Source: an uncultured Alphaproteobacteria bacterium (GTDB lineage: Bacteria; Pseudomonadota; Alphaproteobacteria; Rs-D84). From it: a DNA stretch of 45,705 nucleotides. Where the stretch lies: contig CAMVKK010000002.1 in assembly GCA_947168075.1 (NCBI GenBank), positions 1-45,705 of the forward strand, in the 5' to 3' direction. Made by a program: the position numbers and the translations under genes. A model generated the notes under the pieces. That model had not been told where the DNA came from. It did not search any database and worked only from the letters and a program-made list of their open reading frames with translations. Shown in pieces: positions 1 through 30,089 of this stretch (the first letter of the stretch is position 1; the number at the start of each line of letters is the position of its first letter).

Positions 1-126
1 GCGGCACCGGATTTTGCAAATCAAATGTTTTATTACACATACACGGACGGCCTGCAAAGAAAGGTAACCGTATCGGTAAATAATGACGTCCAGAACGTGT
101 TAAAGCAATTAGAGTTATGTCCATAA
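1..126 (+). CDS. 3' end of an unidentified CDS (partial, enters from the left edge)
   Basis: Frame +1 is open from base 1 to TAA at 124-126 (..YYTYTDGLQRKVTVSVNNDVQNVLKQLELCP*). A hairpin/T-tract terminator follows. Too short to assign. Confidence 0.3.
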   Translation, partial: AAPDFANQMFYYTYTDGLQRKVTVSVNNDVQNVLKQLELCP

Positions 127-141
127 GCAAAAATCAGAAAA

Positions 142-163
142 ACGCCCCACGGGGCGTTTTTTT
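142..163 (+). terminator. rho-independent terminator of the left-edge gene
   Basis: ACGCCCC-AC-GGGGCGT stem followed by T7. Confidence 0.6.
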
Positions 164-316
164 AATCCCCTTCGCGTGGTGAAGGGGAGACGGATGGAAA
201 AGTTCCCCTCCAACGGAGGGGTGGCACGCAGTGACGGGGTGGTCTTGTAAAAACAAATTACCAGGATTCAAAAGACCATCTCCCGGCTACGCCGTACTCC
301 TCCACAGGAGAAGAAC

Positions 317-346
317 TTAAAACCCCGCCACAGTGCTGTGGCGGGG
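317..346 (-). terminator. rho-independent terminator ending the Cys-rich B-C operon
   Basis: The minus strand reads CCCCGCCACA-GCAC-TGTGGCGGGG followed by TTTTAA, 27 nt after the stop at 373. Confidence 0.6.
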
Positions 347-372
347 TAAAATCGAACGAACGGGGATTATTG

Positions 373-1161
373 TTAAACACCCGAATTATTTCTGTTCATC
401 ATATTTTGCGATTTGGTGACATCAGCGTTTCCTAATCTTATCAAGTTCCGCAAACTATTCAAACAATCTCTGAAATTCTGTCTTGTTGAAATGGTGCTAG
501 ATTTCTTACAAAAATCTTTTACCTTTTCTTTGTCGCAGACTTTTGTATCACAAGTATCAATAACCAGCGCATAGTCATTAGCCAATTGTTTCTTTAATTC
601 CGACGTTACATTTTCACCATTGTTTGAACTGTTGTATATGGTGTTCGCATTTGCATGCAAACATTCATACACCTTGGCTGGTGTTAATTCATTATTGCAA
701 TTGCTAACGCCGGCAATGAATATATTTCTGTCGCTGCTGCGGAATTGGGTTGACGACGACCCGGTTGAAACACCCGAATAGGATGAACCGCCCGTGTCAC
801 CATCCGCGCCGGCGGCCATTAATTTGGTTGTCAAAACCGCCTTTTCCAATTGCGTTTTAAAGCGTTTTAATGTCGCGTCCAGGTATTCATACTGCTTATA
901 CATCTGTTGCGTCATTACGGTCGATTTTAATGCAACCACGTCGCGCATTAATTGTTTATCGGATTCGGTCGATGGATTTTCAACCTCGCCTATGTTATAG
1001 ACATGTGTCGAACACAGCGCGATTTCCGGATTAATACGGTCGTTACTATCCTTGCCACAGCCATTATCCGTTGTCGCCGCAAACGCCGGCACAGCCAGCA
1101 ATGCCGCCACACTTACTGCGCCAAGTAATTTACCGTTAAAGATGTTTTTATTGTTTTTCAT
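373..1161 (-). CDS. secreted Cys-rich protein C (262 aa), unknown family
   Basis: ORF track gives 373..1182. I prefer the ATG at 1161 because it overlaps the upstream stop as ATGA and gives a Sec signal peptide (MKNNKNIFNGKLLGAVSVAALLAVPAFA|ATT). There are 8 Cys in the mature part. I recognised no family. Confidence 0.75.
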   Translation of the reverse strand: MKNNKNIFNGKLLGAVSVAALLAVPAFAATTDNGCGKDSNDRINPEIALCSTHVYNIGEVENPSTESDKQLMRDVVALKSTVMTQQMYKQYEYLDATLKRFKTQLEKAVLTTKLMAAGADGDTGGSSYSGVSTGSSSTQFRSSDRNIFIAGVSNCNNELTPAKVYECLHANANTIYNSSNNGENVTSELKKQLANDYALVIDTCDTKVCDKEKVKDFCKKSSTISTRQNFRDCLNSLRNLIRLGNADVTKSQNMMNRNNSGV

Positions 1162-2990
1162 TTTCCTATCGCTTTCGAACATTTCAAAAAGTCTCTGGCC
1201 GCACTACAATCGCATATACCGTTAACAAGTATTCCACCACCCAAAATTTCACATTGTGTTCTTTTGACATTATCAACAACAGATTTTGTATTGTTATTAA
1301 AATCATCGACCATCTGCTCATCCAATCTTTTTTCTTGTGTTATCGACATTGGGTTATTTATCGCCTGTGACAGTTGCGTTTTAAGATTGTTCGATAATTG
1401 TGTTGTGGCTTGGTTATCATACCCATTTGCCACAGGCATTTCATCTGTCACTTCTTTTACAGCAAACGAATTATCAACACACACCTTGGCTGGCAAAGTC
1501 TTTAAAGAAACGATTTTTTCCAAATCCGCCAGCGATTTTTGATTAACCGCACAGAATTTTATTCCATCATCCTTTGGTGTTGTGGCTTTTCCGCCCAAAC
1601 GACCCGCGCCATAAACACTTGGTGCATCTTGTTCAATAATACGTTGCAGGGTTTCTATATCAATACTCGCGCCCTTTTTACGGTTACGGAACAGCGCGGA
1701 TGTTTCCAACATATCGGACATACAGCCAACACGAATCATATTCAATTCGCCGTCTTCAGGATTCAACCAATTATAGCGCACTGCTTCCCCATCGGGAATC
1801 AACCCCAACGGCTGGCATCCACCATCGGATACGGGAATAATTTTACCAATAGTACATTCCGCACCACCAACCACAGTGCCACCACCCGATATGTATCGAC
1901 CATCAGGATCTCTCTTACAATTGTCTGTAGTATAACGAAAATCTTTAACTTTGCCATCAGAATCTTTGTCGCACATATAACGTCCCCAAACATTGCAGGA
2001 ATCGTTAAGCATCATATAAATATCGGTAATATCAACCCCAACAGATTGCGCCAAAATTAATGCGTCATACACTTCGTCCAAAACATTGTCATATGGTTCA
2101 AAGAAATCCATCGCTTTCTGTTTAAAGGTTTTTACGCGCCTTGGCCCGGTGCAATTATTCCCCTTGCTGTCACAGCCCGCATATTCAAACACATCGGTCA
2201 TTGTGGTTTTTAACGCCTTCATTTGTGTTTCGGCGTTTTCAATTGCCGACATTATTTGCCCGGTAATCTGTTCCCGCGCCAAAATATCCGCCGACACACC
2301 GTTTTGTGCAGCAATCTGTTGCGCGGTGGTTAATGCGTTTGCCGCCACCACCTGGGCATCATTTAATTCGGTACCGGTTGTGGTATTATCAACGGTCGTT
2401 GCGCGTGCGGTTGTTGCCTCTGCAATGGCCTGGGCGGTTAACTGTTTTTGTTCTTCCAGTGCGGTTTGCAATTGTGCAACGGTTTCGGCATTTTGTGCCG
2501 CCATTTGCGATTGCATTTGCTGCATTTGCTGTTGCATTTGTGCCATTTGCTGTGCGCTTTGTGCGGCGGCGGCATTTGCCGCGGCGGCCTGGGCCGCGTT
2601 GGATTTAGCCGTGCTCTGTGCCACCAGTTGCGCCGAAATATAGTCCACCAAATCATCGCCATATTGCACGCAAGCCTCGTTCGAACGGACACAGCCCGCA
2701 ACAATGGTCGCCGTTACATCCATATCCACGCACCCGCCATTGGCGCACTTTGGTTGTGCACAGCGCAAAACAATTGCATTGCAATTACCAAAGTCCGCCA
2801 CCGGCATATCAACCGCATCCACGCCCGAACGCACGTTCATCAACGAATTCCAGTTATTATTATTTGTCGCACCCGACCCGCCATTGTACGCGGTCAGGTT
2901 ATTTCCACGCGTAGACGGCACAGGCGCAGAATCCGCGCCAAACGGCACCAATGCCAATGCCAACAATAAAAATCTGGCTATTGATTTCAT
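1158..2990 (-). CDS. secreted Cys-rich protein B (610 aa) with a Q/A/M-rich coiled-coil-like segment, unknown family
   Basis: ORF track gives 1158..3035. The internal ATG at 2990 gives a signal peptide (MKSIARFLLLALALVPFGADSAP) and is preceded by GGAAAGAGAGAA. The longer start would run through the predicted promoter. About 20 Cys, including CNAIVLRCAQPKCANGGC. Confidence 0.75.
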   Translation of the reverse strand: MKSIARFLLLALALVPFGADSAPVPSTRGNNLTAYNGGSGATNNNNWNSLMNVRSGVDAVDMPVADFGNCNAIVLRCAQPKCANGGCVDMDVTATIVAGCVRSNEACVQYGDDLVDYISAQLVAQSTAKSNAAQAAAANAAAAQSAQQMAQMQQQMQQMQSQMAAQNAETVAQLQTALEEQKQLTAQAIAEATTARATTVDNTTTGTELNDAQVVAANALTTAQQIAAQNGVSADILAREQITGQIMSAIENAETQMKALKTTMTDVFEYAGCDSKGNNCTGPRRVKTFKQKAMDFFEPYDNVLDEVYDALILAQSVGVDITDIYMMLNDSCNVWGRYMCDKDSDGKVKDFRYTTDNCKRDPDGRYISGGGTVVGGAECTIGKIIPVSDGGCQPLGLIPDGEAVRYNWLNPEDGELNMIRVGCMSDMLETSALFRNRKKGASIDIETLQRIIEQDAPSVYGAGRLGGKATTPKDDGIKFCAVNQKSLADLEKIVSLKTLPAKVCVDNSFAVKEVTDEMPVANGYDNQATTQLSNNLKTQLSQAINNPMSITQEKRLDEQMVDDFNNNTKSVVDNVKRTQCEILGGGILVNGICDCSAARDFLKCSKAIGK

Positions 2991-3006
2991 TTCTCTCTTT
3001 CCATTA

Positions 3007-3035
3007 ATTTTATCACAAAAAACACCGGGTGGCAA
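3007..3035 (-). promoter_or_regulatory. candidate sigma-70 promoter for the B-C operon
   Basis: The minus strand reads TTGCCA (3035-3030), a 17 nt spacer, then TAAAAT (3012-3007), about 17 nt upstream of ATG 2990. Upstream lie two 11-bp direct repeats ACTAACCACTA (3074-3064 and 3054-3044). Confidence 0.4.
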
Positions 3036-3151
3036 GGGGAGATTAGTGGTTAGTGTTAGTGGGTAGTGGTTAGTAAAACCGTCGCAATCGCGACGGTTTT
3101 CCCCTGCCCCCTTGTGGGGCGGGACAGACCGAATTTCTGGAATTTGTGCAC

Positions 3152-3175
3152 AAAAAACCGCCCGAACGGGCGGTT
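3152..3175 (-). terminator. rho-independent terminator after Cys-rich protein A
   Basis: The minus strand reads AACCGCCCG..CGGGCGGTT followed by TTTTTT, about 20 nt after the stop at 3196. A second bidirectional hairpin ACCGTCGC-AATC-GCGACGGT lies at 3078-3097. Confidence 0.6.
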
Positions 3176-3195
3176 TTATTTATTCGCTTTGGCTA

Positions 3196-6100
3196 TTATT
3201 CCAAAGATGTTGTGATAATGTCGCCATAGTTACCGGCTTCGTCCCCACCGATATAGCATGTGATATGACGGCCGACATTATTCATCCATTCCTGCTGTTC
3301 AGCGGTGAAATTAGTACGGTTTTGTTCCTTTAATATTTGCGCCGTTGTAACACCACCAATAGCACTGGTCAGCCCCGCACCAGTAATATCAACCATTGCG
3401 CGACCACCACCATTGTTCCAGAAGTTTTTATCTTCCTGGGCTTGCGACGGCTGTTGCGACAACTTATTAGACATATCCACACAGTCGTTATACACAGACA
3501 TTACCGCATTAGAAACTTTTGTACTATTTGCCGCTGTTTGTGGACTTGTAAGAACAGAATCCACTGTCACGAGTTTCGCACCTTCTTGACTATTTACTGT
3601 TCGTTGCACATACGACACCAAATCAGCCGTTTTTACTTGCATATCTGTCAACTGGTCACCTGAACAACTTGAAGATGTGCAAGCTTCTGCCGCTCGTCTG
3701 GCTTTGGTTGCCATATCCATACAAGTAGTGTAAACCTGCTGCTTGCTATTCGTGTTCATTTTTGTATTGTTCTTATTTTGTGTTGTCTTTAACAATCCGC
3801 CCAAACCGGTTTGAGATTGCAAAAGGTCTGTACCAACACCACCGGCGATCGCGGACAGTACCGACGCACCCGCGACACCCCACTTTTGGGCATTGGTCAA
3901 ATTACCATTTTTGGACGTACCAAGTTTTTCCGCTGCGACTTCTTCGGACAATGCGACCAAATCCTTTTCCGGAATCCATGAACCGCATGTGAACGAATCG
4001 CCAACCGCAAAGTACGCCGTGGTCCACGATTTGTTACGCATTGCTTCCTGAATCTTTTTATCATCCGATTGCAATGTTACACGCACGCGACAGAACGACC
4101 CATACAAATCGTTACTGGCCTCGAACTGTGATGGTTTCAAACCGTTTACATTATACGCCGCAGGAACCTTTCTTGACGCTTTTAATTTAGCCCACATAAA
4201 TGTAGAACCCAAATCACGGTTGCTTAAAATACCACCCGCGCTGTTTGCCGCCAAACACATATTCTGTTCAGCAGTCAATTTTGCATTATATGTTGCCTGG
4301 GCCTCTTTTTCGATATCAACCATAACCTGTTGCAACAATGTTTCGGCTTCGTTATTCAAAACATAGTCCGAATATGGCACATATTCCTTATCGTCATACA
4401 CGCACCCATTGGAATCAACGGTGTCGCACGGTGCTAAATCATTTTTATTGCATCCTTTGTTACTTGCGACATCATCATCCGATGGATGGCACATACCTGT
4501 TTCAACATCACTCTCTGTTTTGGCTATATCAACCACTTTGGTCGAATTTGCATCCAACCAAGCATCACGAACGCTGCTATTTGTTCCCCAATTGCCGTAA
4601 TCGCTGGACTTTGCCTTGGCGGTTTGTATTGCCAAGTGTTCTTCGCAAGACGATGCGTTTTTAACAGTATCCAGACACAGACCGATAACAATGTTATTAT
4701 CCAACACGCCACCCATCTTGTTCATAGACTTATCAAAACTGCCGCCCAAATCACCGGTATTGTACGTACCCGAAATAATATCGGTACGGTTGCGATAGCA
4801 ATTTGTATAGTCCGAACCACACATTGATTTGATACAACCCTTTGCCACATTTTCACAAGATTTACGCATTTGTGCAATTGCCGCATCATTATAATTTGTT
4901 GCCAGCGCAGAATTCAACGCCGCGACAACACCAATCGCATCAATTTCCGCCCCATTGTCATATTCCGGGAACAAAACATCAAACGCATCGCGGTTTATAT
5001 ATGAATAAGAATATACACCGGATGAATTTGGATTTGCCGCCGCATATTTACAATACAAATCTGTATTAACAATTGTTGCGCAACCGTTTTTTATTTCATT
5101 ATATGTTTCTTCGCCATTGATACTTTTTTCGGTACCACTTTTAAACACCTGGCTGTAACATGCGGAACCAACACCACCACCACAAACACGCATTGCGCAT
5201 GATTTGATTGTGTCGGTGCATTTCTGCTTTGCCTTGACATCAAACTTATCAACCAAATCCGCAATCTTGGCCCGCATAGATGGGTTCATACGCGCTTCGT
5301 ATGCCAATTCAAACACATCGTCTTGGTTCAACGGGTCACGCAACTGTGCGTTCGTTGGCATCTTGCCATCACCAAGGAATGTCGCATAACAGTATTTGTT
5401 TGCCCCGATTGTTGCAAGGCAAGCATCCTGGACATAACCACGAATTGATTTTTTGTTAATTTCACTTAATTGATTCGTTGTAGAACCCGCCAGTTGTTTC
5501 AATGCTTCTGTTTGTTCATCGGACGTTTTATCCTGGGTTCCCAAAATCGCCGTGGCATATTCAGCCAAAACAGCACGAACAGACCCATCGGTGTCGTTGC
5601 CCTCAAAACATCTGTACGGATTTTGTGAACACGCACCCAGAATACACTGGTCAATGGTTTTATAGCATGTGTTAACCGCATTTGTTGCCGCCAATGCCGC
5701 ACCTTCGGCAATCATTTCACCGATACGACTTTTTTCCGACGGTTTTGCCGTACGACTTGACGAACCAAGTAATTCAATTACACCTTCGGATTGGCAACGC
5801 GCCAATATAGAATCACAGGATACGCGCTGTTTACGAAAATCGGTATCTGTGGTGCAAAGTTCGAAATCTTCGCCACAAACGGAATCCCGCCGCAGACACG
5901 ATGTAACACGGCGAACACAGGTTGATGTATCATACTTGTTATTAATTGCCGCCGCGGTTATCATTTGACCCAGAACACTGCCGTCCGTTGGGTATGTGTA
6001 ATCGGTGATTTCGCCATATGTATTCTTGGTTACGCCCGATGCCAACGCCGAAACAGTTGATGTTCCAAACAGACTTTCCACACCCGCCGACGAACATTGC

Positions 6101-6414
6101 GCCAATGTGCCCAGACAGTTTGGCATTTTACCGTGGAACAAGACCTTGGTCGTGCATTCCTCAAAATTTTCGCCACAGGCATCCGCACCACGAATACACT
6201 CGTTGTACGCATCAATACATTCGGCATTTGCCAACAATGCGGACGATGTCGTTGTGCCGGTTGTCGTGGAACTGGCGGTCGATGTTTTTACGACCATGGT
6301 CGGCATACGCGATGACGCGGTCGTCACAATTCCGGGCCGCGCAGTCGCCGCATATGATGCCGGCATAGCGCACAAAAGCGCCATTAAACCAACTGTTTTA
6401 TGAAAGAAATGCAT
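3196..6414 (-). CDS. large secreted Cys-rich repeat protein A (1072 aa), unknown family
   Basis: ORF track gives 3196..6423 with a GTG start. The ATG at 6414 has a GGAG 8 nt upstream. Signal peptide MHFFHKTVGLMALLCAMPASYA|A, then an S/T-rich linker. About 42 Cys in recurring spacings, and two Gly-zipper-like segments near the C-terminus (WGVAGASVLSAIAGGVGTDLL; MVDITGAGLTSAIGGVTT). Confidence 0.8.
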   Translation of the reverse strand: MHFFHKTVGLMALLCAMPASYAATARPGIVTTASSRMPTMVVKTSTASSTTTGTTTSSALLANAECIDAYNECIRGADACGENFEECTTKVLFHGKMPNCLGTLAQCSSAGVESLFGTSTVSALASGVTKNTYGEITDYTYPTDGSVLGQMITAAAINNKYDTSTCVRRVTSCLRRDSVCGEDFELCTTDTDFRKQRVSCDSILARCQSEGVIELLGSSSRTAKPSEKSRIGEMIAEGAALAATNAVNTCYKTIDQCILGACSQNPYRCFEGNDTDGSVRAVLAEYATAILGTQDKTSDEQTEALKQLAGSTTNQLSEINKKSIRGYVQDACLATIGANKYCYATFLGDGKMPTNAQLRDPLNQDDVFELAYEARMNPSMRAKIADLVDKFDVKAKQKCTDTIKSCAMRVCGGGVGSACYSQVFKSGTEKSINGEETYNEIKNGCATIVNTDLYCKYAAANPNSSGVYSYSYINRDAFDVLFPEYDNGAEIDAIGVVAALNSALATNYNDAAIAQMRKSCENVAKGCIKSMCGSDYTNCYRNRTDIISGTYNTGDLGGSFDKSMNKMGGVLDNNIVIGLCLDTVKNASSCEEHLAIQTAKAKSSDYGNWGTNSSVRDAWLDANSTKVVDIAKTESDVETGMCHPSDDDVASNKGCNKNDLAPCDTVDSNGCVYDDKEYVPYSDYVLNNEAETLLQQVMVDIEKEAQATYNAKLTAEQNMCLAANSAGGILSNRDLGSTFMWAKLKASRKVPAAYNVNGLKPSQFEASNDLYGSFCRVRVTLQSDDKKIQEAMRNKSWTTAYFAVGDSFTCGSWIPEKDLVALSEEVAAEKLGTSKNGNLTNAQKWGVAGASVLSAIAGGVGTDLLQSQTGLGGLLKTTQNKNNTKMNTNSKQQVYTTCMDMATKARRAAEACTSSSCSGDQLTDMQVKTADLVSYVQRTVNSQEGAKLVTVDSVLTSPQTAANSTKVSNAVMSVYNDCVDMSNKLSQQPSQAQEDKNFWNNGGGRAMVDITGAGLTSAIGGVTTAQILKEQNRTNFTAEQQEWMNNVGRHITCYIGGDEAGNYGDIITTSLE

Positions 6415-6497
6415 TTGTCTCACTCCATTATTTTTATTTTATTATATCATATTTTCGGATTTAGACAAACGAAAAAGTGCGTTTTTTGAAATGTTTT

Positions 6498-7451
6498 TTA
6501 TACCGATTCCAATAAATATTTTAATTCCGCCATATCGTCCGGCAACGGTGCACGGAAATGCATTTTTTCGCCCGTCACGGGGTGGGTAAATTCCAGTACC
6601 TCGGCATGCAACATTTGACCATTATGCGTTTTAAGGAAATCCAACAAATCCGCATTCTTGACCGACCCCAACCGCGTGGACGCACGACCATAGACCGTAT
6701 CACATAAAACCGGAAAACCATGCGCCGATAAATGCACGCGAATCTGGTGCGTGCGCCCCGTCAACAGCGTACAGCGAAACGCCGATACCCCCGCCCGTGG
6801 CCAAGTATCCATTACCGCGACCAATGTAGTTGCGGGTTTGCCCCCGCTCTTTACCATACTCATCTTTTGGCGATTACGGGACGACCGCGCAATATTGCCT
6901 GTAATTGTTGCGCTTTCCCAGTTTGGAACACCCCACACAAACGCAACATATTTTCGCGTCAAATCGTGCGCCATAAAAGTTTTTACCAAACCGTGATATG
7001 CGGCATCAGACTTTGCAAAAACCATAACGCCACTGGTATCCTTGTCCAAACGATGCACCACCCCCGGTCGCGTTGTGCCACCGGCGGACGCCAACGGGGT
7101 ATGTGCCAAAATGTTTTGAACCAATGTCCCGGTTTTGTTCCCAGCGGACGGATACATAACAACCCCGCGCGGCTTGTTAATCACAATAATATCGTCATCT
7201 TCGTACAAAATATCTAAATCAAAATCGGTTGAAATATTGTCCGCCGCAATGGTTGTCGCGGGTGCATCCGGTATTTCGACAATCAATTCATCGCCCATAC
7301 GAACTTTATCCGAAAAGCGCACCGGCGCACCATTGCGAGTTACGGAAAATTTCTGAATTTCACTGCGTGAAAAATCGGGCATAGCGCCGACCAAGAACTT
7401 ATCGACACGAACGCCCGCATTTAATTCATCAACAACAAATTCACGAATCAC
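6498..7451 (-). CDS. rluD: 23S rRNA pseudouridine synthase, RluA/RluD family
   Basis: S4-like N-terminus (VRVDKFL), catalytic HRLDKDTSG and GRTHQIRVHL motifs, 317 aa, GTG start. Confidence 0.85.
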   Translation of the reverse strand: MIREFVVDELNAGVRVDKFLVGAMPDFSRSEIQKFSVTRNGAPVRFSDKVRMGDELIVEIPDAPATTIAADNISTDFDLDILYEDDDIIVINKPRGVVMYPSAGNKTGTLVQNILAHTPLASAGGTTRPGVVHRLDKDTSGVMVFAKSDAAYHGLVKTFMAHDLTRKYVAFVWGVPNWESATITGNIARSSRNRQKMSMVKSGGKPATTLVAVMDTWPRAGVSAFRCTLLTGRTHQIRVHLSAHGFPVLCDTVYGRASTRLGSVKNADLLDFLKTHNGQMLHAEVLEFTHPVTGEKMHFRAPLPDDMAELKYLLESV

Positions 7452-7459
7452 GAAAACAC

Positions 7460-7933
7460 CTATTTATATTCAGACCAATCTTTGCCTTTTTGGCACCTGG
7501 ACAAATCAATCGTTAAATCACGACCATCGGCATCAACCGGGCATGTCAGCATTCCTGTCCCCGCCGCTTGGTCTGCATCACGCGCGGCGTTGCGCCATGA
7601 AAAGTTAATCGTTTCCGGTGGGTATACACACGCAATGTGTAATTCGCCATCATGTTTGTTATTCGGCCCCAACCAGACCCGCACGCCATACCCCAATCCA
7701 TAGCACGGGAACCCGTCCAGGTAATATAAAACCAACCCTTTATTCCCAATCAATTTAGAATCCGGCTTGAAATGACCATTGTATTCGTTCAGTAACAGGC
7801 CGGTTAATGCCTGCCAATCTGTACTGGTGGAAAAAACGCTGACCCGCGGGGTCGGCGGTGGTGCCGGTGGCGTATCAGCAATCGCCCCAAAAGCACTCAG
7901 AATAATAGCAAACGCAACCAGTGTTTTTTTCAT
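7460..7933 (-). CDS. small secreted protein (157 aa), unknown function
   Basis: Signal peptide MKKTLVAFAIILSAFGAIA|D, a Pro-rich stretch (PPAPPPTP) and 4 Cys. Its start overlaps the upstream stop (TAATG). Confidence 0.65.
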   Translation of the reverse strand: MKKTLVAFAIILSAFGAIADTPPAPPPTPRVSVFSTSTDWQALTGLLLNEYNGHFKPDSKLIGNKGLVLYYLDGFPCYGLGYGVRVWLGPNNKHDGELHIACVYPPETINFSWRNAARDADQAAGTGMLTCPVDADGRDLTIDLSRCQKGKDWSEYK

Positions 7934-8442
7934 TACTTATCCCCCGTTTGTAATTCAACCGTTATTTTTTTGACCCCATCAGTCGGCGTAGTGAGCATAT
8001 GATTAAATTCAACCGATGCGCCCGATTCAACCAGTGTTGCCGATGGCATAAATTTCTGCCGCGCGATTTCACGACCCGCCGCATCACGCGACACAACGAT
8101 TAAGTCCGGCACACCATATATTTCCGTTGACTGATTAATAATCGCGCCACGAACCGCAAAGCGTGGCACGCCACTATTATCGACAACGGTCTTTATTTCC
8201 GTTAATTGCGCAATAATTGGTTCCCGATTTGCGTTTTTGATTTTAGATTGCACCACCACTGCGGTTGCAAATACCGCCGCCGAAAGCAATGCACAAAGGG
8301 ACGCAATAAACACCATCCATGCACCACGCCGCGATGGGGTCGCAACCGTCCAAACATGACCACACACAGCACATTTAACCGGCGCAGTCGGTGTTTTATC
8401 CACCGAATATTCTGTTTTGCAAAAATCACATTTTATTTTCAT
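7933..8442 (-). CDS. MJ0042-type zinc-ribbon membrane protein, ZitP-like (Zn ribbon, TM, DUF3426-like C-terminus)
   Basis: The N-terminus MKIKCDFCKTEYSV..VKCAVCGHVWTV has two CxxC pairs. A single TM follows (WMVFIASLCALLSAAVFATAVVV), then a roughly 100 aa periplasmic domain. The architecture matches Caulobacter ZitP as I remember it. Confidence 0.65.
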   Translation of the reverse strand: MKIKCDFCKTEYSVDKTPTAPVKCAVCGHVWTVATPSRRGAWMVFIASLCALLSAAVFATAVVVQSKIKNANREPIIAQLTEIKTVVDNSGVPRFAVRGAIINQSTEIYGVPDLIVVSRDAAGREIARQKFMPSATLVESGASVEFNHMLTTPTDGVKKITVELQTGDK

Positions 8443-8464: not shown

Positions 8465-9781
8465 TTATTCCAAATTCAATAGTCGATATTTCGCACGCAC
8501 CTTTGTCTGAATTTCGTTAATCGCGTTCATAAAGTCCGCCGCCGTTGCGTTTTTATTTGCAGCAACCGAACCAAACACCTGGGTTGCGATGGTTGACGAT
8601 GAAGATTCTTTTTTGGAAATCAATGGTGCCATTCGATTTAGTTCCGCCAATGACATATCTGCAAATTGCGCCGTACCATTTTTCAAATCCCAAAAGAAAT
8701 TGGAATTTTTAGAATCTTCTATTTTATTACGCACGACCAAACGCGGTGTAATAGAACCGCTGAATCCAACAGTTGTAAAAAGTGCAGAAATGCGCCCACC
8801 CGTCATATCCAAAGCCTGATTAACACTAAGCACAGCAACTTTTTCATCACTGGAAACAGACATACCCGACAATTCCAAATTTGTTACCCATAAATTCGCC
8901 GTATTAAAGTTGGAAAATTTTCCTAAATCAGATAATGTTAGTGCGCCCGCAATTTCCATATTCTTTGAATCAGACGACAACGACCCAACACAAGTTGCGT
9001 TTTTTGTTTCAAATGCGCTGTCTATGGTGGTGCGATTATTAAACACGACCTTGTTCGCGGCAATATCTATTGATTGAAAAATTTCGTCAAAACCCGCCGA
9101 TTTTACATCAAACCGCGTTGCATTAATTATATCGTGTCCGCCCAGACTTAACCCGCTTAACATTGTTGCATCGTCCGGCGAATCCGAAGGAACCCGCCAA
9201 AGATATAACGCATTATCGCGATTAACAGATGTTGTTCCGACAATTCCATTTGTCGCTTCTATTCCCAAATCAATGGTATCGGTATGCCACGCACCAAATG
9301 TACCGTATGCGTGTGTGCCTTCGACAAAGCCCATATCACTGCCGCCGGCGGCAACAATTTCACGTGTCCGCATTGGGGATATAGAATCGTCAGACATAAT
9401 AACCACACCCTGTAATGTCGCCTGGCCGGTGGCATCGGACGATTTTAAAATACGCAACTGATATTTATCTGCGTGTTCTGAAACGATTGCATCTGGCACC
9501 CCATATTCCGACAAATCACCAATTTCAACGCGTATAATAGATTTTCCCGCAACATTAAGCAATTTATCACGATTCATCACAATATATCGTTCCAATGCAT
9601 TTTGCACATCCTGCATCTGGCGCGCGACTGCAATATTTTCCACACGCATAATAGAATCTTGCTGATACCTGAACAAGAACGGCAACACCACCGAAACGAT
9701 AGCAACACTCATCAGCAATTCAACCAACATTCCACCACGTTGTAATGCACGATTTTCAAAAATGCGACTTTTAAAAACCAT
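8465..9781 (-). CDS. oversized type-IV-pilin-like protein P3 (438 aa)
   Basis: ORF track gives 8465..9823. The ATG at 9781 is preceded by G9. The N-terminus MVFKSRIFENRALQRG|GMLVELLMSVAIVSVVLPFLF is prepilin-type: a leader ending in G, Glu at +5, and a hydrophobic helix. It shares a central motif with P1 and P2. Confidence 0.7.
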   Translation of the reverse strand: MVFKSRIFENRALQRGGMLVELLMSVAIVSVVLPFLFRYQQDSIMRVENIAVARQMQDVQNALERYIVMNRDKLLNVAGKSIIRVEIGDLSEYGVPDAIVSEHADKYQLRILKSSDATGQATLQGVVIMSDDSISPMRTREIVAAGGSDMGFVEGTHAYGTFGAWHTDTIDLGIEATNGIVGTTSVNRDNALYLWRVPSDSPDDATMLSGLSLGGHDIINATRFDVKSAGFDEIFQSIDIAANKVVFNNRTTIDSAFETKNATCVGSLSSDSKNMEIAGALTLSDLGKFSNFNTANLWVTNLELSGMSVSSDEKVAVLSVNQALDMTGGRISALFTTVGFSGSITPRLVVRNKIEDSKNSNFFWDLKNGTAQFADMSLAELNRMAPLISKKESSSSTIATQVFGSVAANKNATAADFMNAINEIQTKVRAKYRLLNLE

Positions 9782-10988
9782 TCCCCCCCCCGATATTTTG
9801 TGGAACATATGTTTGCCAATCACTGGTCATCAGTGCACCAAATTCTGTCTTGCTCGGTATTGCCGGCATTTGCGCGCGCGATAACACCAACGCAGTAAAA
9901 TTTGGTGGTGTTAATGACGGGAAAGACCAATTACCAAACTTGATTGGTGCATCGGTGGACATCATTAATTCACCAGATACAGTTAAACCCGCATCTTCGT
10001 AAAACATTATTTCGTTGCTTGTTAAAAACGGCGTATAAACAGAACCAGTCTTTATACCAACAAATCCACTTATTGTGCGTGCGCCACTGGATTTAAGATT
10101 AAAGTTCCGCGCAACATTTACCGACTTTGTTACGGTGGCACGGTCAGCAATTACACGCCCAGATGTCGTATATGTCGTTCCGTTTAATTTGTCGGCATAG
10201 ATATTTCGAAAACCCATGATATCGCCCGTTACACGCAACGAATCAATCGAAACATTTCCGCCAGTCATATTTGCGCCGTTGGTAAAATACACACTTTGCG
10301 CGACCAGATCTTCTGATTTAACAAATGTTGCCGTTGCATCCTGGATTCGTGTCGCAGATGCTGAAACGCCACCAACATCAAACACGTCATTTCCACCCAT
10401 ATTTAAATCGCGCATCATTACATTCAAATCGTCATCCCCGGACGAACCGCGATGTAAATATTTTGTATTATCTTCGCCAAACACACTGCGTGATATACGA
10501 TATATCAAATCACCGACATAAAAGTCCGGGGCACTTACCGCCCAAGTGCGACCGTATGCAACACCGTCCGCACCAACAACAGCGGCATCTTCGCCAATAT
10601 GATGTGCGATACTGGCGGTTCTTAAATTATGCGCATTTATATCAAATGCCAAATAAACATCAGTTATTGTTGTTCCACGCACAGAATATTTATCAATAAA
10701 CCCCGCGTGTGCATCCGTAGCAATCAATTCTAATTCTTCGTCCGTCATACGAATTTGTGCAACATCGGGCCATTCGTCCTGGTTCAGACGAATAAAATTC
10801 AGAACATTACCGCGTAATTCTGTAATTTTATGCGCGGTTGCCATATCGTTAATATTGCGATTCGTTTCTGATATCTGGGAATAAACCAATGGTGCCGCTA
10901 TGGCAACAATAGCCATGGAAAGCAGCACCTCTAACACACTGGCGCCACGATTTAATTCATCAAAAATTTTTGTTTTAATTGCAACCAC
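9771..10988 (-). CDS. oversized type-IV-pilin-like protein P2 (405 aa)
   Basis: GTG start overlapping the P1 stop by 14 nt. N-terminus MVAIKTKIFDELNRG|ASVLEVLLSMAIVAIAAPLVY with Glu at +5. Central motif YLHRGSSGDDDLNVMMRDLNMGGNDVFDV, followed by a G/N/T/V-rich beta-strand-like region. Confidence 0.7.
   Translation of the reverse strand: MVAIKTKIFDELNRGASVLEVLLSMAIVAIAAPLVYSQISETNRNINDMATAHKITELRGNVLNFIRLNQDEWPDVAQIRMTDEELELIATDAHAGFIDKYSVRGTTITDVYLAFDINAHNLRTASIAHHIGEDAAVVGADGVAYGRTWAVSAPDFYVGDLIYRISRSVFGEDNTKYLHRGSSGDDDLNVMMRDLNMGGNDVFDVGGVSASATRIQDATATFVKSEDLVAQSVYFTNGANMTGGNVSIDSLRVTGDIMGFRNIYADKLNGTTYTTSGRVIADRATVTKSVNVARNFNLKSSGARTISGFVGIKTGSVYTPFLTSNEIMFYEDAGLTVSGELMMSTDAPIKFGNWSFPSLTPPNFTALVLSRAQMPAIPSKTEFGALMTSDWQTYVPQNIGGGNGF
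9783..9791 (-). repeat. G9 homopolymer (C9 on the + strand) at the P2/P3 junction
   Basis: Counted directly: ttCCCCCCCCCgat. Confidence 0.9.
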
Positions 10989-12333
10989 TTTTTCCCGCCA
11001 ACAAACATTGTTTTATATCTATTCTTTTTTCCAAACGTTGCCAGTACACATATTGGCATATTATGTACTGCGACAGCGATTTTTGGTTATACACACCATT
11101 TAACGATGATATAATTGAACGACAATCAACAGTATTTGAATTGCTGTCTGATGGTCGCGCCAAAATTTCAAACGTACTGTTATCAATTGTCGCAACATAT
11201 GCATCTGGCAACAAAGATGTTCCACTGGGGCGAATATCCAAAACAACCGCCCCCGTCAACCCCCGCGACAATGCATCAGATGTCTGGTCCCGCAATGTTA
11301 TATTTGATGCATAAATCACATTAGTATCGATACCACTGTTGCTGCTATATTCCAGACTGTTCGAATTAATATACACATCTTGACCACGCGAAGCGTTTAT
11401 AAAAGAATTAACATCCAACCGTTCAACACCGAAATTAATTTTATCGGTAACAACATTGCCACGAATATTCCAATTTGCAGGTCCCGTAAAACTGGTTCGA
11501 CCCGCAGTCATAGAAAAATCATAAACGGCGGCATTATTTGTCGTTATACTGCCTGCATCGCCGTACGCAGATATTGTTTTTCCAAAAACATTTCCGACAA
11601 TCAACGCCCCACGGGTAAGCGACAAGGCACTTTCACCAGTTTGCGATTGAAATATAGCCTTGTCTGCAACAATAACAGAAATGGTATTTCGTACCTTTCG
11701 CCCAGATTCGACACCGTTGATAGTTAAAATTCCAAGTTCTGCACCATCAAATTCACCACGGCGTGCAGATACCCGGCCGGCATTAGAAAATTCAAAATTT
11801 CCCATATCTAAATCAACCAAAAACGCCCCTGAATCAACATCAACTTCGTTACGGCGAACAACATCAGAATAAATGTTATCTAAAACAATGCCAACCTGGA
11901 CATCATTGTCGCCGCCATCCGCAGCATAGAACCCAATACGCCGTATCAATTCTGTGCGTTTAAGTTCATCCAAATTTCCACCACGCAAATCCAGATATGC
12001 AGAAACAGATTCAAAATCTTTGTTTATAACCAACGATATGTCCTGTCCCAGTGCGGTTTTGGGGACAAAACCCAACGGTAATCCATACGGTTCCAATGTA
12101 TCTGAAAAAGATTTGCCCGATATTATTGTTTGTTCATACGGTAATTTATGTGCATTTTCGCGAATATAAATCCGCGCCGCGGTGGTGGCATTATCAATCT
12201 GTCGTGTGGTTGAATACATTAACGCATCATTTTCGCGGTCCAGTAATTTTATTGCAACAAACGGGATAAACGCGAACAGCAATGTCAGCGATAACAATGC
12301 CTGTAACAGAAAATTTCCGCGTTGATTGTACAA
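10975..12333 (-). CDS. oversized type-IV-pilin-like protein P1 (452 aa)
   Basis: TTG start with a strong SD (AGGAGGG, 7 nt upstream). N-terminus MYNQRG|NFLLQALLSLTLLFAFIPFV with Gln at +5. There is a Cys cluster at the C-terminus. Confidence 0.7.
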   Translation of the reverse strand: MYNQRGNFLLQALLSLTLLFAFIPFVAIKLLDRENDALMYSTTRQIDNATTAARIYIRENAHKLPYEQTIISGKSFSDTLEPYGLPLGFVPKTALGQDISLVINKDFESVSAYLDLRGGNLDELKRTELIRRIGFYAADGGDNDVQVGIVLDNIYSDVVRRNEVDVDSGAFLVDLDMGNFEFSNAGRVSARRGEFDGAELGILTINGVESGRKVRNTISVIVADKAIFQSQTGESALSLTRGALIVGNVFGKTISAYGDAGSITTNNAAVYDFSMTAGRTSFTGPANWNIRGNVVTDKINFGVERLDVNSFINASRGQDVYINSNSLEYSSNSGIDTNVIYASNITLRDQTSDALSRGLTGAVVLDIRPSGTSLLPDAYVATIDNSTFEILARPSDSNSNTVDCRSIISSLNGVYNQKSLSQYIICQYVYWQRLEKRIDIKQCLLAGKSGCN

Positions 12334-12849: not shown

Positions 12850-14391
12850 ATGGATAATAGTTACACTGTTTTAGCCCGTAAATACCGCAGCCAGGATTTT
12901 GATTCCCTTATTGGCCAGGATGTTTTGGTCAAAACACTTACCACTGCGATTAATACGGGGCGTATTGCGCATGCGTATATTTTTACCGGAATTCGTGGAA
13001 CTGGAAAAACCAGTACCGCCCGTATTTTGGCCAAGGCTTTGAACTGTCTGTCATCTGACCGTCCAACGGCAAAGCCGTGTGGTGTATGTGAAAATTGTCG
13101 TGCAATTGCCGCCGGGCAACATATTGACGTATTGGAAATTGACGCTGCGTCACATACGGGCGTTGATAACATGCGTGAAATACTGGACGCGGTTCAGTAT
13201 CGTCCAACCAATGGCCGGTACAAGGTTTATATTATTGACGAAGTCCACATGTTATCACAAAGCGCATTTAATGCGTTGCTTAAAACATTAGAAGAACCAC
13301 CTGCACATGTAATTTTCATATTGGCAACCACCGAAATACGAAAAGTTCCTGTAACGATTCTGTCGCGGTGCCAACGTTTTGATTTGGTTCGTGTTCCTGT
13401 TGATACATTAAAGAAACACTTTGCATGGATAGCAGACCAAGAAAAAATCGAATTATCCGATGGTGCAAATGAATTATTGGCGCGTGCGGCGGATGGTTCT
13501 GTTCGTGATGGATTATCATTACTGGACCAGGCAATTGCACAAACCGGTGGTCATGTTGACGAAGCGTCCGTATTAAACATGCTTAAACGCGCCGATCGTG
13601 GTGTTGTTATGGATATTATGGAAACTGTTTTAAGTGGCGACACCGCAACCGCACTGGAAAAGGTGGATAATATTTATAATAACGGTGCCGATTTATCTAT
13701 GTTATTGACCGATATGATGGAATGGACACATTGGGCGACCCGTATGCATCCATCTGTTCGTGGTGGTGATGTTATGACCGCACCATATACCGCGGATCAG
13801 CGCACCAAGATTCGTGAAATTGATTCACACGTAACATTAAACACTCTTTCCCGCATATGGCAGGTTATGGTGGCATCCGTCCCTGAAATGGCGGCAACTG
13901 GAAACCCAAAACAATGTTTTGATATGTTAATCGTGCGTTTGATGCACATTGCAGAAATGCCATCTGTTGCGGAAATTTTAAAAAAGCAACCGTCTGCACC
14001 GGTGGCAACACCGATTGAAAAAACCGCACCCGCAATGCCGGCACCAAAAACTGTAAAAATAACATCAGCAACAGAATTAGCATCTGAATTACAATCGTCA
14101 CGGGAAATTTTGCTGTACACATATTATACGAATAATATCGAAGTTTCTGATTTTGCGGACGGTAACATAAAATATTTTGATCGCGGAACAGATGCCGAAT
14201 TTGCGCAAAAATTAACCAAATGGTTAAATGAAAAGACGGGTCACGCGTGGACATTGGTTTGCGAAGAAAAATCTGAAAGCGTTCACACTGTATCCGAACA
14301 GAAACGCGAAGAATTGGAATCAGATCCATTAATTGCCGATGCAATGAGCCTGTTCGAAGGGGCTGAAATTATCGGTTCAACTAAAAAGTAA
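12850..14391 (+). CDS. dnaX: DNA polymerase III subunit tau/gamma
   Basis: ORF track gives 12811..14391. ATG 12850 has an AAGGAA SD. Walker A GIRGTGKTSTARILAKALNC, Zn module CGVCENCRAI, DEVHML, SRCQRF. Confidence 0.93.
   Translation: MDNSYTVLARKYRSQDFDSLIGQDVLVKTLTTAINTGRIAHAYIFTGIRGTGKTSTARILAKALNCLSSDRPTAKPCGVCENCRAIAAGQHIDVLEIDAASHTGVDNMREILDAVQYRPTNGRYKVYIIDEVHMLSQSAFNALLKTLEEPPAHVIFILATTEIRKVPVTILSRCQRFDLVRVPVDTLKKHFAWIADQEKIELSDGANELLARAADGSVRDGLSLLDQAIAQTGGHVDEASVLNMLKRADRGVVMDIMETVLSGDTATALEKVDNIYNNGADLSMLLTDMMEWTHWATRMHPSVRGGDVMTAPYTADQRTKIREIDSHVTLNTLSRIWQVMVASVPEMAATGNPKQCFDMLIVRLMHIAEMPSVAEILKKQPSAPVATPIEKTAPAMPAPKTVKITSATELASELQSSREILLYTYYTNNIEVSDFADGNIKYFDRGTDAEFAQKLTKWLNEKTGHAWTLVCEEKSESVHTVSEQKREELESDPLIADAMSLFEGAEIIGSTKK
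13980..13986 (+). promoter_or_regulatory. candidate -1 programmed frameshift heptamer A_AAA_AAG in dnaX
   Basis: The zero frame reads ttA AAA AAG caa (..ILKKQ..). The -1 frame then reads GCA ACC GTC TGC ACC GGT GGC AAC ACC GAT TGA, with the stop at 14016-14018. Confidence 0.35.
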
Positions 14392-14411
14392 AAAATCGGG
14401 GGGAAAGAAAG

Positions 14412-14870
14412 ATGAGACAAGAATCTGGACGTTCACTAATCGAAATTATTGGCGTATTGGCAATTGGTGCCATTATGTCGGTTGCAGCAATTAAGATGTA
14501 CGGACAAATTCGTACGACACAAACGCGCACAATTGTATCCAGTGAATTAGAACAATTGGTAAAAAATGTAAAATTGCTTACGGGGGCGCGTGGTTCATAT
14601 GCGGGGGTTTCCGTTGATTATCTGGTCAAAGCGGGCGCGTTAAAATCACCCCGCGCACCAATTGGTGGTGACGGATGGTCGGTCCAGCCCAGTTTTGATG
14701 AAAAAACTTTTTCTATTAATTTAGTTGAACTGTCATCTGGCGAATGTGAATATTTCGCAATAAAGAAACAACCATGGGCAACAACCATTTTAATTAATGG
14801 CACAGAATTGAACGGCACATCAAATTGCTTTTCAACAAACACGAACCAGGTTTCTTTTATAGTGGAATAA
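14412..14870 (+). CDS. type IV pilin / pseudopilin (152 aa)
   Basis: MRQESG|RSLIEIIGVLAIGAIMSVAAIKMY has a 6-aa leader, Glu at +5 and a hydrophobic alpha1-N. A single C-terminal Cys pair (C112, C139) is typical of the pilin D-region. The SD is GGGGGGAAAG. Confidence 0.8.
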   Translation: MRQESGRSLIEIIGVLAIGAIMSVAAIKMYGQIRTTQTRTIVSSELEQLVKNVKLLTGARGSYAGVSVDYLVKAGALKSPRAPIGGDGWSVQPSFDEKTFSINLVELSSGECEYFAIKKQPWATTILINGTELNGTSNCFSTNTNQVSFIVE

Positions 14871-14871
14871 A

Positions 14872-15555
14872 TTGAAAATAATAAAATTCATTTTTCCAAT
14901 TATTGCATATTGCACACTTGTCGGGTGCATGTCGTATCACAGTCCAGAACGCACCACTTGGCCAAATTATCTGCGTGGTGCCAGTTTTACAGATATGACC
15001 GAAACATCACGCGTTGCAAAAAAGCCCGTACTGATGGGGGCGGGCGGACGCGTTATCAGCCAAACTGTGGACGGTGGCACAAAATCAGAATACGGAGACA
15101 AAGTTGCAAATGAAAACGCGTTGGCTTTGGCATATATGTCTGAATTGGAATATAAATTATACGATGCGCTACGCAAACCCGGCATTTCGGTCCAGCGCGC
15201 CGGCACAGATGTAGTTATTATTCTGGTACGCGATGCCATTATGGAATTAAATGTTGCCGATATATCTGCTGATGGTGCCGACACATTAAAAATTATTTCA
15301 AAAATACTTAATAAATATGATGCCACATTTATCGAGATCGCAGGTTACACCGATGCTATGCGTGACAAACACGCATCCGCGGCATTATCAAACGATATGG
15401 CATCACGCACCGCGGTATATTTAACCCAGCATGGAATTATTCCACAACGGCTTTTTATTGTCGGTCGTGGTGCGGCACGCCCCATCGCAGCCCAGGATGA
15501 CATAGGTCGTCTGACTAATCGCCGTGTTGAAATTCGGGTTGCCCCCGTGCGATAA
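14872..15555 (+). CDS. OmpA/MotB-domain lipoprotein (peptidoglycan-binding)
   Basis: TTG start 1 nt after the pilin stop. Lipobox LVG|C. The C-terminal OmpA-like domain reads ..IEIAGYTDA....NRRVEIRV. Confidence 0.8.
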   Translation: MKIIKFIFPIIAYCTLVGCMSYHSPERTTWPNYLRGASFTDMTETSRVAKKPVLMGAGGRVISQTVDGGTKSEYGDKVANENALALAYMSELEYKLYDALRKPGISVQRAGTDVVIILVRDAIMELNVADISADGADTLKIISKILNKYDATFIEIAGYTDAMRDKHASAALSNDMASRTAVYLTQHGIIPQRLFIVGRGAARPIAAQDDIGRLTNRRVEIRVAPVR

Positions 15556-30020: not shown

Positions 30021-30089
30021 AGTTCAAAGTGGAAAGTTCAAATAATGTGTGCCGGCGAATGCCGGCACTACTTTATTATATTTGAACTT
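30021..30089. repeat. palindromic intergenic repeat, copy 2
   Basis: AGTTCAAAGTGGAAAGTTCAAATAATGTGTGCCGGCGAATGCCGGCACTACTTTATTATATTTGAACTT, in the same orientation as copy 1. It fills the infB/virD4 convergent gap. Confidence 0.75.

Follow-up and report, generated by a model that had tools for sequence, protein, structure and literature searches.

Three cysteine-rich, probably exported protein families of an uncultured gut alphaproteobacterial lineage

Gene content and protein architecture

We analyzed a stretch of 45,705 nucleotides (contig CAMVKK010000002.1; the whole stretch is called the window below) from an uncultured gut alphaproteobacterium of the Candidatus Enterousia group, order Rs-D84, in which three genes, here named A, B and C, lie on the minus strand downstream of an rluD-type gene (PseudoU_synth_2; 6498-7451) and encode unusually Cys-rich proteins with predicted signal peptides. 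Gene A (3196-6414) specifies a predicted exported, mainly α-helical orphan protein of 1072 amino acids (aa) with 43 Cys, gene B (1158-2990) is an open reading frame (ORF) whose translation has 610 aa and 20 Cys, and gene C (373-1161) encodes 262 aa with 8 Cys, its start overlapping the stop codon of B within the sequence ATGA. The Cys content of the three products is 3.0-4.0%, compared with less than 1.5% in most other proteins of the window and 0.45-0.9% in LptD, TolC and both OmpA-family proteins. Translation of A probably starts at the ATG at 6414, which is preceded by GGAG 8 nt upstream and agrees with the N-termini of the homologues; a GTG at 6423 lacks a ribosome-binding site and is an unlikely start. 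One of the 43 Cys falls within the signal peptide, leaving 42 in the mature protein. An earlier note on this DNA had described the trio and its Cys richness, the ATGA overlap, a terminator behind A and a promoter candidate before B, and each of these was found as claimed.

Candidate transcription signals, all on the minus strand, surround these genes. Between the rluD stop (6498) and the start of A there is a promoter-like site (6441-6468, TTGTCT-16-TATAAT), and a second precedes B (3007-3035, TTGCCA-17-TAAAAT), both being TG-extended and scoring 10/12 in a consensus scan. Two terminator-like hairpins with perfect 11-nt arms, each followed by a T run, lie after A (3154-3177 and 3075-3100), and two more follow C (322-347, with 12-nt arms that are 100% complementary, and 133-166, 16 nt and 88%). 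A is thus predicted to be a transcription unit separate from B-C, so that of the proposal that all three genes are co-regulated we retain the part that concerns B and C, a translationally coupled pair, but not the inclusion of A, which is set apart by a promoter-like site before it and two terminator hairpins behind it. The intergenic stretches 1-372 and 2991-3195 are also dense with short GC-rich palindromes, some of them imperfect, to an extent that exceeds the need of one terminator.

Relatives of A occur in 214 GTDB species (a scan with one genome per species), and our locus comparisons use 80 loci drawn from that scan, all from metagenome-assembled genomes (MAGs) of human, ruminant, rodent, rabbit and bird guts that are titled Alphaproteobacteria, 'Rickettsiales' or Candidatus Enterousia, one of them a circular genome of 958,618 bp. 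The order dnaX / P1-P2-P3-Zn169-X157-rluD-A, in which P1-P3 are pilin-like genes described below, is kept in 70-74 of the 80. The position of B-C is less regular. Among 51 loci with 5 kb or more of sequence beyond A, only 21 have the pair there; elsewhere it lies after rpmH, near gyrA, and the supposed linkage of A, B and C as a set of three is therefore not upheld. C, on the other hand, comes directly after B wherever the two occur together (24 loci), and B-C fusion proteins without the C signal peptide occur in three clusters (P0146, P0155 and P0157), the last of which stands immediately behind A on contigs obtained independently from ENA and NCBI. Because C always follows B and such fusions exist, B-C appears to be one functional unit. 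What would link A to B-C, and to the pilin-like genes, is synteny only, and a distant relative of A (P0494) has neither P1-P3 nor B-C nearby. One further arrangement was seen in the circular MAG OZ007020.1 (L034), where a 586-aa ORF on the opposite strand (13223-14983, minus) is inserted between A and B, so that the A/B junction evidently tolerates insertion; a weak aminoglycoside-phosphotransferase (APH) match in Pfam belongs to an unrelated 247-aa gene of another locus (L081).

The signal peptides of the three proteins were judged by eye. That of A (aa 1-23, 6346-6414) ends in ...SYA/AT, the slash marking the predicted cleavage point, and follows a conserved consensus, MxFFKKTIGFxAVLxxxPAAxA/ATARPSV. 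Of the Sec signal peptides claimed for all three, those of A and C have AxA sites, and that of B has a non-canonical cleavage site with P at +1 after ...ADSA. As had been noted, an S/T-rich linker follows in A (aa 24-60, 6235-6345); it is predicted to be disordered, with a predicted local distance difference test (pLDDT) score below 50, and contains a conserved ARPSV...RMPT motif in which R36 and P38 are invariant. Next come two tandem 6-Cys helical modules, M1 (aa 61-160) and M2 (aa 161-228), at 5731-6234, with the pattern C-x6-C-x6-CGE.FE.C-x12-C-x6-C. Their Cys spans, A66-107 and A166-207, share the spacing C-x6-C-x6-C-x6-C-x12-C-x6-C within a module of ∼100 aa, all 12 Cys are invariant, and the duplication is significant both by BLASTP (E = 1e-14) and by hhalign (99%, E = 8e-18). 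The helical region beyond (aa 229-600, 4615-5730) holds three C-x6-C-x4-C-x6/7-C units, each then followed by C-x9-C, and the Cys at 250/257/262/269 with 332/342, 399/406/411/419 with 445/455, and 520/527/532/539 with 580/590 are invariant, being kept at 22-28% identity, with a hypervariable insert at aa 271-330. Four strings of the form C-x6-C-x4-C-x(3-7)-C had been pointed out and are present, at A250, A399, A520 and B70. The 4-Cys module does recur as a spacing pattern, but homology of the A and B modules was not shown by profile-profile comparison, in which the M1/M2 duplication alone was significant.

The C-terminal half of A combines conserved and hypervariable parts. A β-rich conserved domain (aa 631-830, 3925-4524) carries C720, C775 and C810, with strands at 637-644, 672-679, 739-744, 773-783 and 799-809 in the AlphaFold2 (AF2) model, and over aa 691-830 homologues have a median identity of 66% with the query. 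It is followed by a Gly-rich, glycine-zipper-like hydrophobic segment (segment 1, aa 845-867, 3814-3882) with a Kyte-Doolittle peak of 1.49, near that of the signal peptide, whose position is kept in homologues. Beyond it lies a hypervariable domain (aa 868-1008, 3391-3813), a predicted helical bundle with its own Cys pairs (AF2 helices 888-911, 919-944 and 961-986, pLDDT 64-89), for which median identity falls to 13% and length ranges from 109 to 317 aa, and then a second Gly-rich hydrophobic segment (segment 2, aa 1009-1030, 3325-3390). Besides the signal peptide these two segments, already remarked on in the earlier note, give the strongest hydrophobic peaks of the protein, and they occur in homologues too: G-x3-G together with [GAS]x3[GAS]x3[GAS] is present at segment 1 in 77 of 82 A homologues and at segment 2 in 51. 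Weak matches to the Pfam families Gly-zipper_Omp and C19orf12 at segment 2 of homologues stay below the cut-offs. The protein ends in a predicted β-hairpin motif (aa 1031-1072, 3196-3324), W-MN-VGRHI-CYIGG-E-G-YGD, made of invariant or near-invariant residues and containing a single Cys, C1053.

The RMPT-type motif of the linker was also seen outside the A family. Among 1287 ORFs of the window and the loci, R[MLQVI]P[TV][MLVI] occurs 81 times within residues 20-90 and twice elsewhere, its carriers being the A family (aa 24-41, window 6292-6345) and a Cys-free secreted family of ∼430 aa (for example L081, 17227-18510), in which A/RLPVVNL stands directly after the signal peptide. It could serve as an N-terminal signal for sorting or processing that is specific to the lineage.

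Protein B consists of a signal peptide, an N-rich linker, Cys-stapled N-terminal helices (aa 66-110, with C70/77/82/87/100/107), a strikingly conserved Q/A-rich coiled coil (111-195), a helical and α/β core (231-510) and a hypervariable tail (aa 511-610, 1161-1460). The tail has a median identity of 8% and is built on the 4-Cys mini-module C-x3-GG-x-W-x3-6-C-x-C-x8-12-C, present in 0-3 copies among homologues. In protein C the signal peptide is followed by a conserved N-half that contains a coiled coil (aa 29-120), then by an S/G linker and a variable Cys-paired C-half.

Homologues number more than 760 for A, more than 1337 for B and 475 for C, all of them from MAGs of gut Alphaproteobacteria and every named one annotated as 'hypothetical protein', and in an exhaustive hidden Markov model search the A profile matched only 264 clusters among 1.84 billion (1.84e9) representative proteins. 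On this distribution the three families appear confined to the Enterousia / Rs-D84 lineage. The most distant full-length relatives of A (22-28% identity, from MAGs titled 'Alphaproteobacteria' or 'Rickettsiales') retain the full architecture but have one N-terminal 6-Cys module, not two. Nothing above noise came from Pfam or NCBIfam for A, B and C themselves; scans of all 110 C homologues, of distant A relatives, of long-tailed B homologues and of other Cys-rich ORFs against these databases gave noise or sub-threshold glycine-zipper matches only; and PDB profile searches with the three families found nothing, or low-complexity Q-rich matches only. The three proteins are also mutually unrelated at the level of detection, profile-profile tests being not significant. 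AF2 models were used for A and B only: that of A (mean pLDDT 66.9, 613 residues at 70 or above) is mainly helical with a small β domain and that of B (pLDDT 65.3) mainly helical with a small α/β domain. Foldseek searches, of A against PDB and BFVD and of B against PDB, yielded no match at E ≤ 0.001, the best values being 0.63 (A, PDB), 0.028 (A, BFVD) and 0.45 (B, PDB), with TM-scores of ∼0.1 that correspond to generic helices. The view that the family is unrecognized is thus borne out by the lack of Pfam, NCBIfam or PDB-sequence matches for A, B and C and of Foldseek matches for the A and B models; the families are new at the sequence level, A and B at the fold level too, and the general kind to which they belong, disulfide-rich exported proteins with variable domains, is already known. 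Two papers that treat the biology of the lineage (PMC12306168 and PMC11257099) make no mention of A, B or C, nor does PMC8992543, a report of an Rs-D84 MAG only. Phage carriage of A was considered and set aside as not general, given a single IMG/VR match (L086) and one distant relative beside phage-like genes. That relative, P0494 (contig L083), has phage-like T7-type terminase, head-tail connector, lysozyme and capsid genes in its flanks, and dnaB as well.

Cysteine parity and mosaic variation

The Cys are the most constant feature of these proteins. In an alignment of A that reaches down to 22% identity, 27 of the 39 invariant columns are Cys, and Cys positions are conserved among homologues even at 22-28% identity. 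Their number is constrained as well. Mature A homologues contain 38, 40, 42 or 44 Cys, an even number in 98%, and the gain of C642 goes with that of C671 (r = 0.96). The parity also holds for separate parts of the chain, the region between the Gly-rich arms having 2, 4, 6 or 8 Cys (even in 99% of homologues), the N-part an odd count (35 or 37) in 99% and the C-terminal end exactly one Cys in 82 of 82 homologues. Since the N-part is odd and the C-terminal end has a single Cys, one bond must, if all are paired, tie C1053 to the N-part. In B, the core (16 or 18 Cys) and the tail (2-16 Cys) are both even in 80 of 80 homologues, and in C the N-half is even in all 110 homologues, 109 of which have 2 Cys there, with 4 or 6 in the C-half, which is even in 90%.

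An even-Cys bias in exported proteins is an accepted genomic signature of oxidative folding, reportedly described by Dutton et al. (PNAS, 2008); see also PMC4597128. Together the counts point to intramolecular disulfides in A, B and C, and the earlier suggestion that these are exported proteins stabilized by disulfides gains support both from Cys parity and from the gain and loss of Cys in pairs. The spacing would suit such bonds: the dominant i/i+7 interval on predicted helices places two Cys on one helix face, and in the 6-Cys modules 66/107 and 73/100 are placed symmetrically on either side of the loop that joins two predicted helices, an arrangement that fits stapled helix pairs. In the C-x6-C-x4-C-x6-C units, a single long helix of the AF2 model carries the first three Cys, which makes simple symmetric (nested-hairpin) pairing uncertain there.

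Other Cys-rich secreted ORFs were seen near A in relatives, namely two of 383 aa with 25 Cys and 709 aa with 31 Cys (L035, 674-1825 and 1945-4074) and others of 418-484 aa with 13-14 Cys (L002, 14075-15331; L035, 13526-14980). None has a Pfam match. In the 709-aa ORF a module resembling that of A, C-x6-C-x6-CG.D.F..C, was matched by hmmsearch (i-E 1.7e-4), and its tail is rich in CxC as in B; with such additional ORFs in relatives, Cys-stapled exported proteins seem to be a habit of the lineage.

The three proteins share a division into conserved cores and hypervariable segments. Median identity of the cores to the query is 66-84% overall (A 61-270, 76%; B 231-330, 80%; C 29-120, 68%), near the housekeeping level given by rluD and dnaX in the same genomes (∼72-77%), whereas the variable segments fall to 8-20%, with 17% (A 271-330), 13% (A 871-1020), 8% (B 511-610) and 19% (C 201-262). 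The change from one regime to the other can be abrupt. One homologue of B (P0122) is ∼99% identical up to residue 461, a sharp breakpoint after which it is unrelated and has its 4-Cys module elsewhere; a homologue of C (P0242) is 100% identical to about residue 160 and 27% identical from there; and a homologue of A (P0002) has 99-100% identity over 691-1072 and 17% over 271-330. The same is seen in the DNA, where blocks of 99-100% identity between window positions 1-5401 and the contig of P0122 alternate with blocks of 67-81% and with unalignable blocks, the latter being the B tail (1119-1477) and the C-half of C with its 3′ flank. These patterns of identity indicate that variable segments have probably been exchanged between strains by recombination of divergent alleles, and suggest that the block replacement reflects selection for diversity in folded, Cys-paired domains. 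At the edge of the window, the lowest 162 nt are 100% identical to another strain (L087) and the adjacent 600 nt are unalignable.

Proposed role and rival explanations

What we observe are the genes and where they occur, the absence of known relatives, the conservation and parity of Cys, the mosaic variation and the B-C fusion; the disulfides, the location and the biological role of the proteins we infer. The explanation that we prefer, and to which we give an even chance, is that A, B and C make up an envelope or cell-surface module that is stapled by disulfides and joins conserved cores to swappable variable domains. Members of the lineage have genomes below 1 Mb and lack the tricarboxylic acid cycle, a respiratory chain and standard transporters; it has been proposed that they live in dependence on partners (PMC12306168). 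The three proteins would be exported through Sec and then folded oxidatively into helices held by intramolecular cystines, which as half of the mature Cys numbers would amount to 19-22 in A, 9-17 in B and 3-4 in C, and such stapling would provide these small-genome cells with protease-resistant extracytoplasmic proteins. In A, the bond of C1053 would anchor the conserved β-hairpin to the conserved N-terminal body and so close a loop presenting the variable helical bundle between the two glycine-rich hydrophobic arms, which may themselves embed in a membrane. The B-C unit would carry variable small Cys-knot ends on a conserved coiled coil and globular core. The conserved cores of the module would dock to conserved envelope components of the cell itself, and the variable Cys-paired domains (the A bundle, the B tail and the C-half of C) would face outside, towards partner cells, the host, phages or antibodies.

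The membrane in question can be narrowed down to some extent. The inter-arm domain of A has its own even set of Cys and is therefore probably not cytoplasmic, so that, if the arms span a membrane, the outer membrane would be expected. Glycine-zipper helices, as in SlyB and YfgH, do embed in the diderm outer membrane (bioRxiv 10.64898/2025.12.22.696046). With its two G-x3-G hydrophobic segments, A resembles the glycine-zipper 2TM lipoproteins (SlyB, YfgH, OsmB and the Rickettsia 17-kDa antigen; PF05433, PF13488), but in A the segments are split by a folded domain of 109-317 aa rather than by a tight turn. No Gly-zipper family of Pfam is matched above threshold in A, the homologue P0034 reaching E = 0.005 for Gly-zipper_Omp with 17 bits against a 25-bit cut-off, and A has no lipobox, its signal peptide ending in ...PASYA/AT and Cys15, found in only 46% of homologues, lying outside a lipobox. 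We would put the likelihood that the arms span the outer membrane at no more than about one in three, a low rating because AF2 confidence is low and hydropathy modest. A fuller version, in which A would display its hypervariable bundle through two glycine-zipper outer-membrane helices as a non-β-barrel anchor, with B-C as partner and cystines made in this fermentative bacterium by an oxidation independent of respiratory quinones, the whole being an apparatus that attaches cells to a needed partner organism, we regard as rather improbable.

Several points weigh against the envelope or surface module. AF2 gives the Gly-rich arms of A as low-confidence coil and not as confident helices, and their hydropathy of 1.0-1.65 is under the usual transmembrane threshold. 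A, B and C show no β-barrel, lipobox or known sorting signal, and their exposure at the surface is a prediction. The disulfides themselves are likewise predicted from sequence, and since the homologues share ancestry, the parity percentages suggest more independent events than there were. Given the reported absence of a respiratory chain (PMC12306168), the DsbB-quinone route is not obviously available; there is no Dsb-like gene in the window or the sampled flanks, which cover a few percent of a genome, and a search for CxxC proteins in the window and more than 80 loci, all from the same small genome region, found only ComF-like and spurious ORFs. The hypervariability, finally, could stem in part from relaxed constraint.

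Known systems offer analogies and no homology, the nearest being disulfide-stapled helical proteins (Hcp/Sel1-like, CHCH, α-hairpinins) in design principle, mosaic variable surface proteins in behavior and glycine-zipper outer-membrane proteins in a single motif. In Helicobacter, the Hcp proteins with Sel1-like repeats are secreted helical repeat proteins whose helix pairs are stapled by disulfides; their repeat lengths and Cys spacings differ from those of A, B and C, which have no match to Sel1 (PF08238), and no Hcp structure appeared among the PDB-sequence or Foldseek matches. Twin-CX9C (CHCH) proteins, CX3C hairpins and plant α-hairpinins place two Cys on one helix face and pair them with two Cys of an antiparallel helix; all are small peptides of eukaryotic mitochondria or of plants, and their Cys are spaced i/i+10 or i/i+4. 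The C-x6-C ... C-x6-C arrangement found here (for example 66/73 with 100/107) is alike in design, but it has i/i+7 spacing, sits in modules within bacterial proteins of 260-1070 aa and shows no homology to them. Conserved assembly parts with hypervariable exposed parts, diversified by recombination, are typical of mosaic variable surface proteins such as the hypervariable domains of flagellin and type IV pilins, Neisseria Opa and the variant-specific surface proteins (VSPs) of Giardia, the VSPs being Cys-rich as well. A, B and C are like these in their conserved and hypervariable layout, with no homology and with surface exposure predicted only, and neither silent cassettes nor phase-variation repeats were found in the window. 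The B-tail modules do not fit the six-Cys epidermal growth factor (EGF) type (PROSITE-type C-x-C-x2-[GP]-[FYW]-x4-8-C), having 4 Cys in the order C-x3-GG-x-W-...-C-x-C-...-C, and long-tailed B homologues gave no EGF match in Pfam. As the earlier note had it, A, B and C have no Pfam or NCBIfam match to an autotransporter barrel or known adhesin repeat, and no barrel is present in the AF2 models.

The Cys bear most directly on two rival explanations. A disulfide cross-linked envelope lattice like that of Chlamydia, hardening a resistant or transmissible cell form, takes up the cross-linked surface layer or matrix and the analogy to organisms with resistant stages that the earlier note had suggested. 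Chlamydial OmcB and OmcA are exported Cys-rich envelope proteins of a host-dependent bacterium, with disulfide-dependent function (PMC6752827), and A, B and C, three abundant-looking proteins with predicted export, share their unusually high Cys content; the lineage here would be host- or partner-dependent too (PMC12306168), and relatives have the additional Cys-rich secreted ORFs mentioned above. There is, however, no sequence similarity to OmcA, OmcB or MOMP, the OmcB/OmcA families of Pfam or NCBIfam (Chlam_OMP6/DUF11-type repeats for OmcB, a small lipoprotein for OmcA) having no match at E ≤ 1 in A, B or C and none in distant relatives, and A and B are predicted to be helical, not β-rich. 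Cys numbers are even per polypeptide and per domain, with no systematic unpaired Cys left over and no sign of free Cys, and this closure within chains speaks against a lattice of intermolecular bonds. Rod-shape and peptidoglycan genes are present in Enterousia / Rs-D84 (PMC12306168), MurG, FtsW and MraY genes lie near the B-C pair of one relative, and there is no sign of a developmental cycle. Neither the cross-linked layer nor the analogy to resistant-stage organisms is supported, a lattice of this kind being very unlikely. Still less do we favor periplasmic metal- or cluster-binding proteins for redox or storage, with Cys as ligands and not cystines, which we hold to be highly improbable: the anaerobic habitat, where no obvious oxidant pathway was found, would accord with ligands, and the 4-Cys groups (C-x6-C-x4-C-x6-C; C...C-x-C...C) could in principle form tetrahedral sites, but known ligand motifs such as CxxC and CxxCH are missing, as are matches to any cofactor family, i/i+7 spacing on a helix sets the thiols too far apart for one metal, many C-x9-C pairs are isolated, and variable-region counts of 2, 6, 10 and 14 besides multiples of 4 speak against 4-Cys sites.

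Two further explanations turn on location. A, and perhaps B-C, may, much as the earlier note suggested, be cargo or accessories of the pilin-like system (P1-P3 and a 152-aa protein), folded with disulfides in the periplasm and then exported across the outer membrane by a pseudopilus or carried as a pilus adhesin. Substrates of type II secretion usually pass through the periplasm in a folded state with their disulfides formed, which accords with this idea, as do the prepilin-like N-termini of P1-P3 and the 152-aa protein and the order from P1 to A, kept in 70-73 of the 80 loci. That order may only reflect a stable small genome, since synteny is just as good for dnaX, which lies on the other strand; between A and P1-P3 stand rluD, a promoter-like site and terminators, P1-P3 are not near the distant A relative P0494, and B-C is located elsewhere in most relatives. 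No secretin, ATPase or prepilin peptidase lies within the window, and type IV pili are not reported for Rs-D84 in a published survey (PMC12306168). We consider the cargo explanation unlikely, and it would be compatible with the envelope or surface module as a route to the surface. The other possibility, that of a purely periplasmic scaffold bracing the envelope from inside, with variable segments as weakly constrained linkers, would agree with cores conserved at 66-84%, near the housekeeping 72-77%, with coiled coils and long helices and with the lack of a recognizable outer-membrane export signal. It is decidedly unlikely in our estimation, because the variable segments keep strictly paired Cys and appear to be folded, as in the helical bundle modeled for A (pLDDT 64-89), and because their block replacement between near-identical strains looks like selection for diversity and not like drift.

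Rs-D84 / Enterousia bacteria occur widely in the guts of humans, ruminants, birds and termites. Few lineage-specific exported proteins of the group are as large and as well conserved as A, B and C, A alone taking up 3.2 kb of a ∼0.9-Mb genome, and as such the three would be prime candidates for a contact interface with the surroundings. They raise the question of how an anaerobe without a respiratory chain makes the dozens of structural disulfides that parity predicts, and of what selects for block-wise replacement of the variable domains: phages, host immunoglobulin A or partner specificity. The new families include a compact helical module, stapled by i/i+7 Cys and without a solved structure, that may be of interest to protein engineering. 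Should the three proteins prove to be ordinary periplasmic scaffolds, this would still be a clean annotation of three conserved 'hypothetical' families.

Neighboring genes and related records

Four type IV (pre)pilin-like N-termini are encoded in the window, at 8465-12333 (minus strand) and 14412-14870 (plus strand), with the form G/xxxxE followed by a hydrophobic helix. P3 reads RGG/MLVELLMSVAIV, P2 reads RG/ASVLEVLLSMAIV and P1 reads RG/NFLLQALLSL, with Q and not E at +5, and the 152-aa protein reads SG/RSLIEIIGVLAIG and matches N_methyl in Pfam with E = 0.0076. P1-P3 are unusually large (405-452 aa). Two small genes between P3 and rluD (7460-8442, minus) are both syntenic in 73 of the 80 loci: X157, a secreted protein of 157 aa with 4 Cys and no family, and Zn169, of 169 aa, whose N-terminus holds a zinc ribbon (Zn_ribbon_4) and which also has one transmembrane helix and an outer domain.

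The other genes of the window are ordinary diderm housekeeping genes, among them dnaX, lpxD, skp, lptD, lptF/G, nusA, infB, bamB and MacAB-TolC. An orphan VirD4/TraG-type coupling protein of a type IV secretion system (T4SS) is encoded at 30089-32302 (minus), between infB and an rsmE-like gene (T4SS-DNA_transf, E = 4e-53); no other vir genes are near it, and T4SS genes may be scattered as in Rickettsiales. A complete Enterousia-type locus (dnaX, P1-P3, rluD, A, B and C) also stands on a 102-kb contig titled 'Bacteroides fragilis' (L010, CAVGNU010000002.1), a record that looks like a mislabeled or contaminated public bin.

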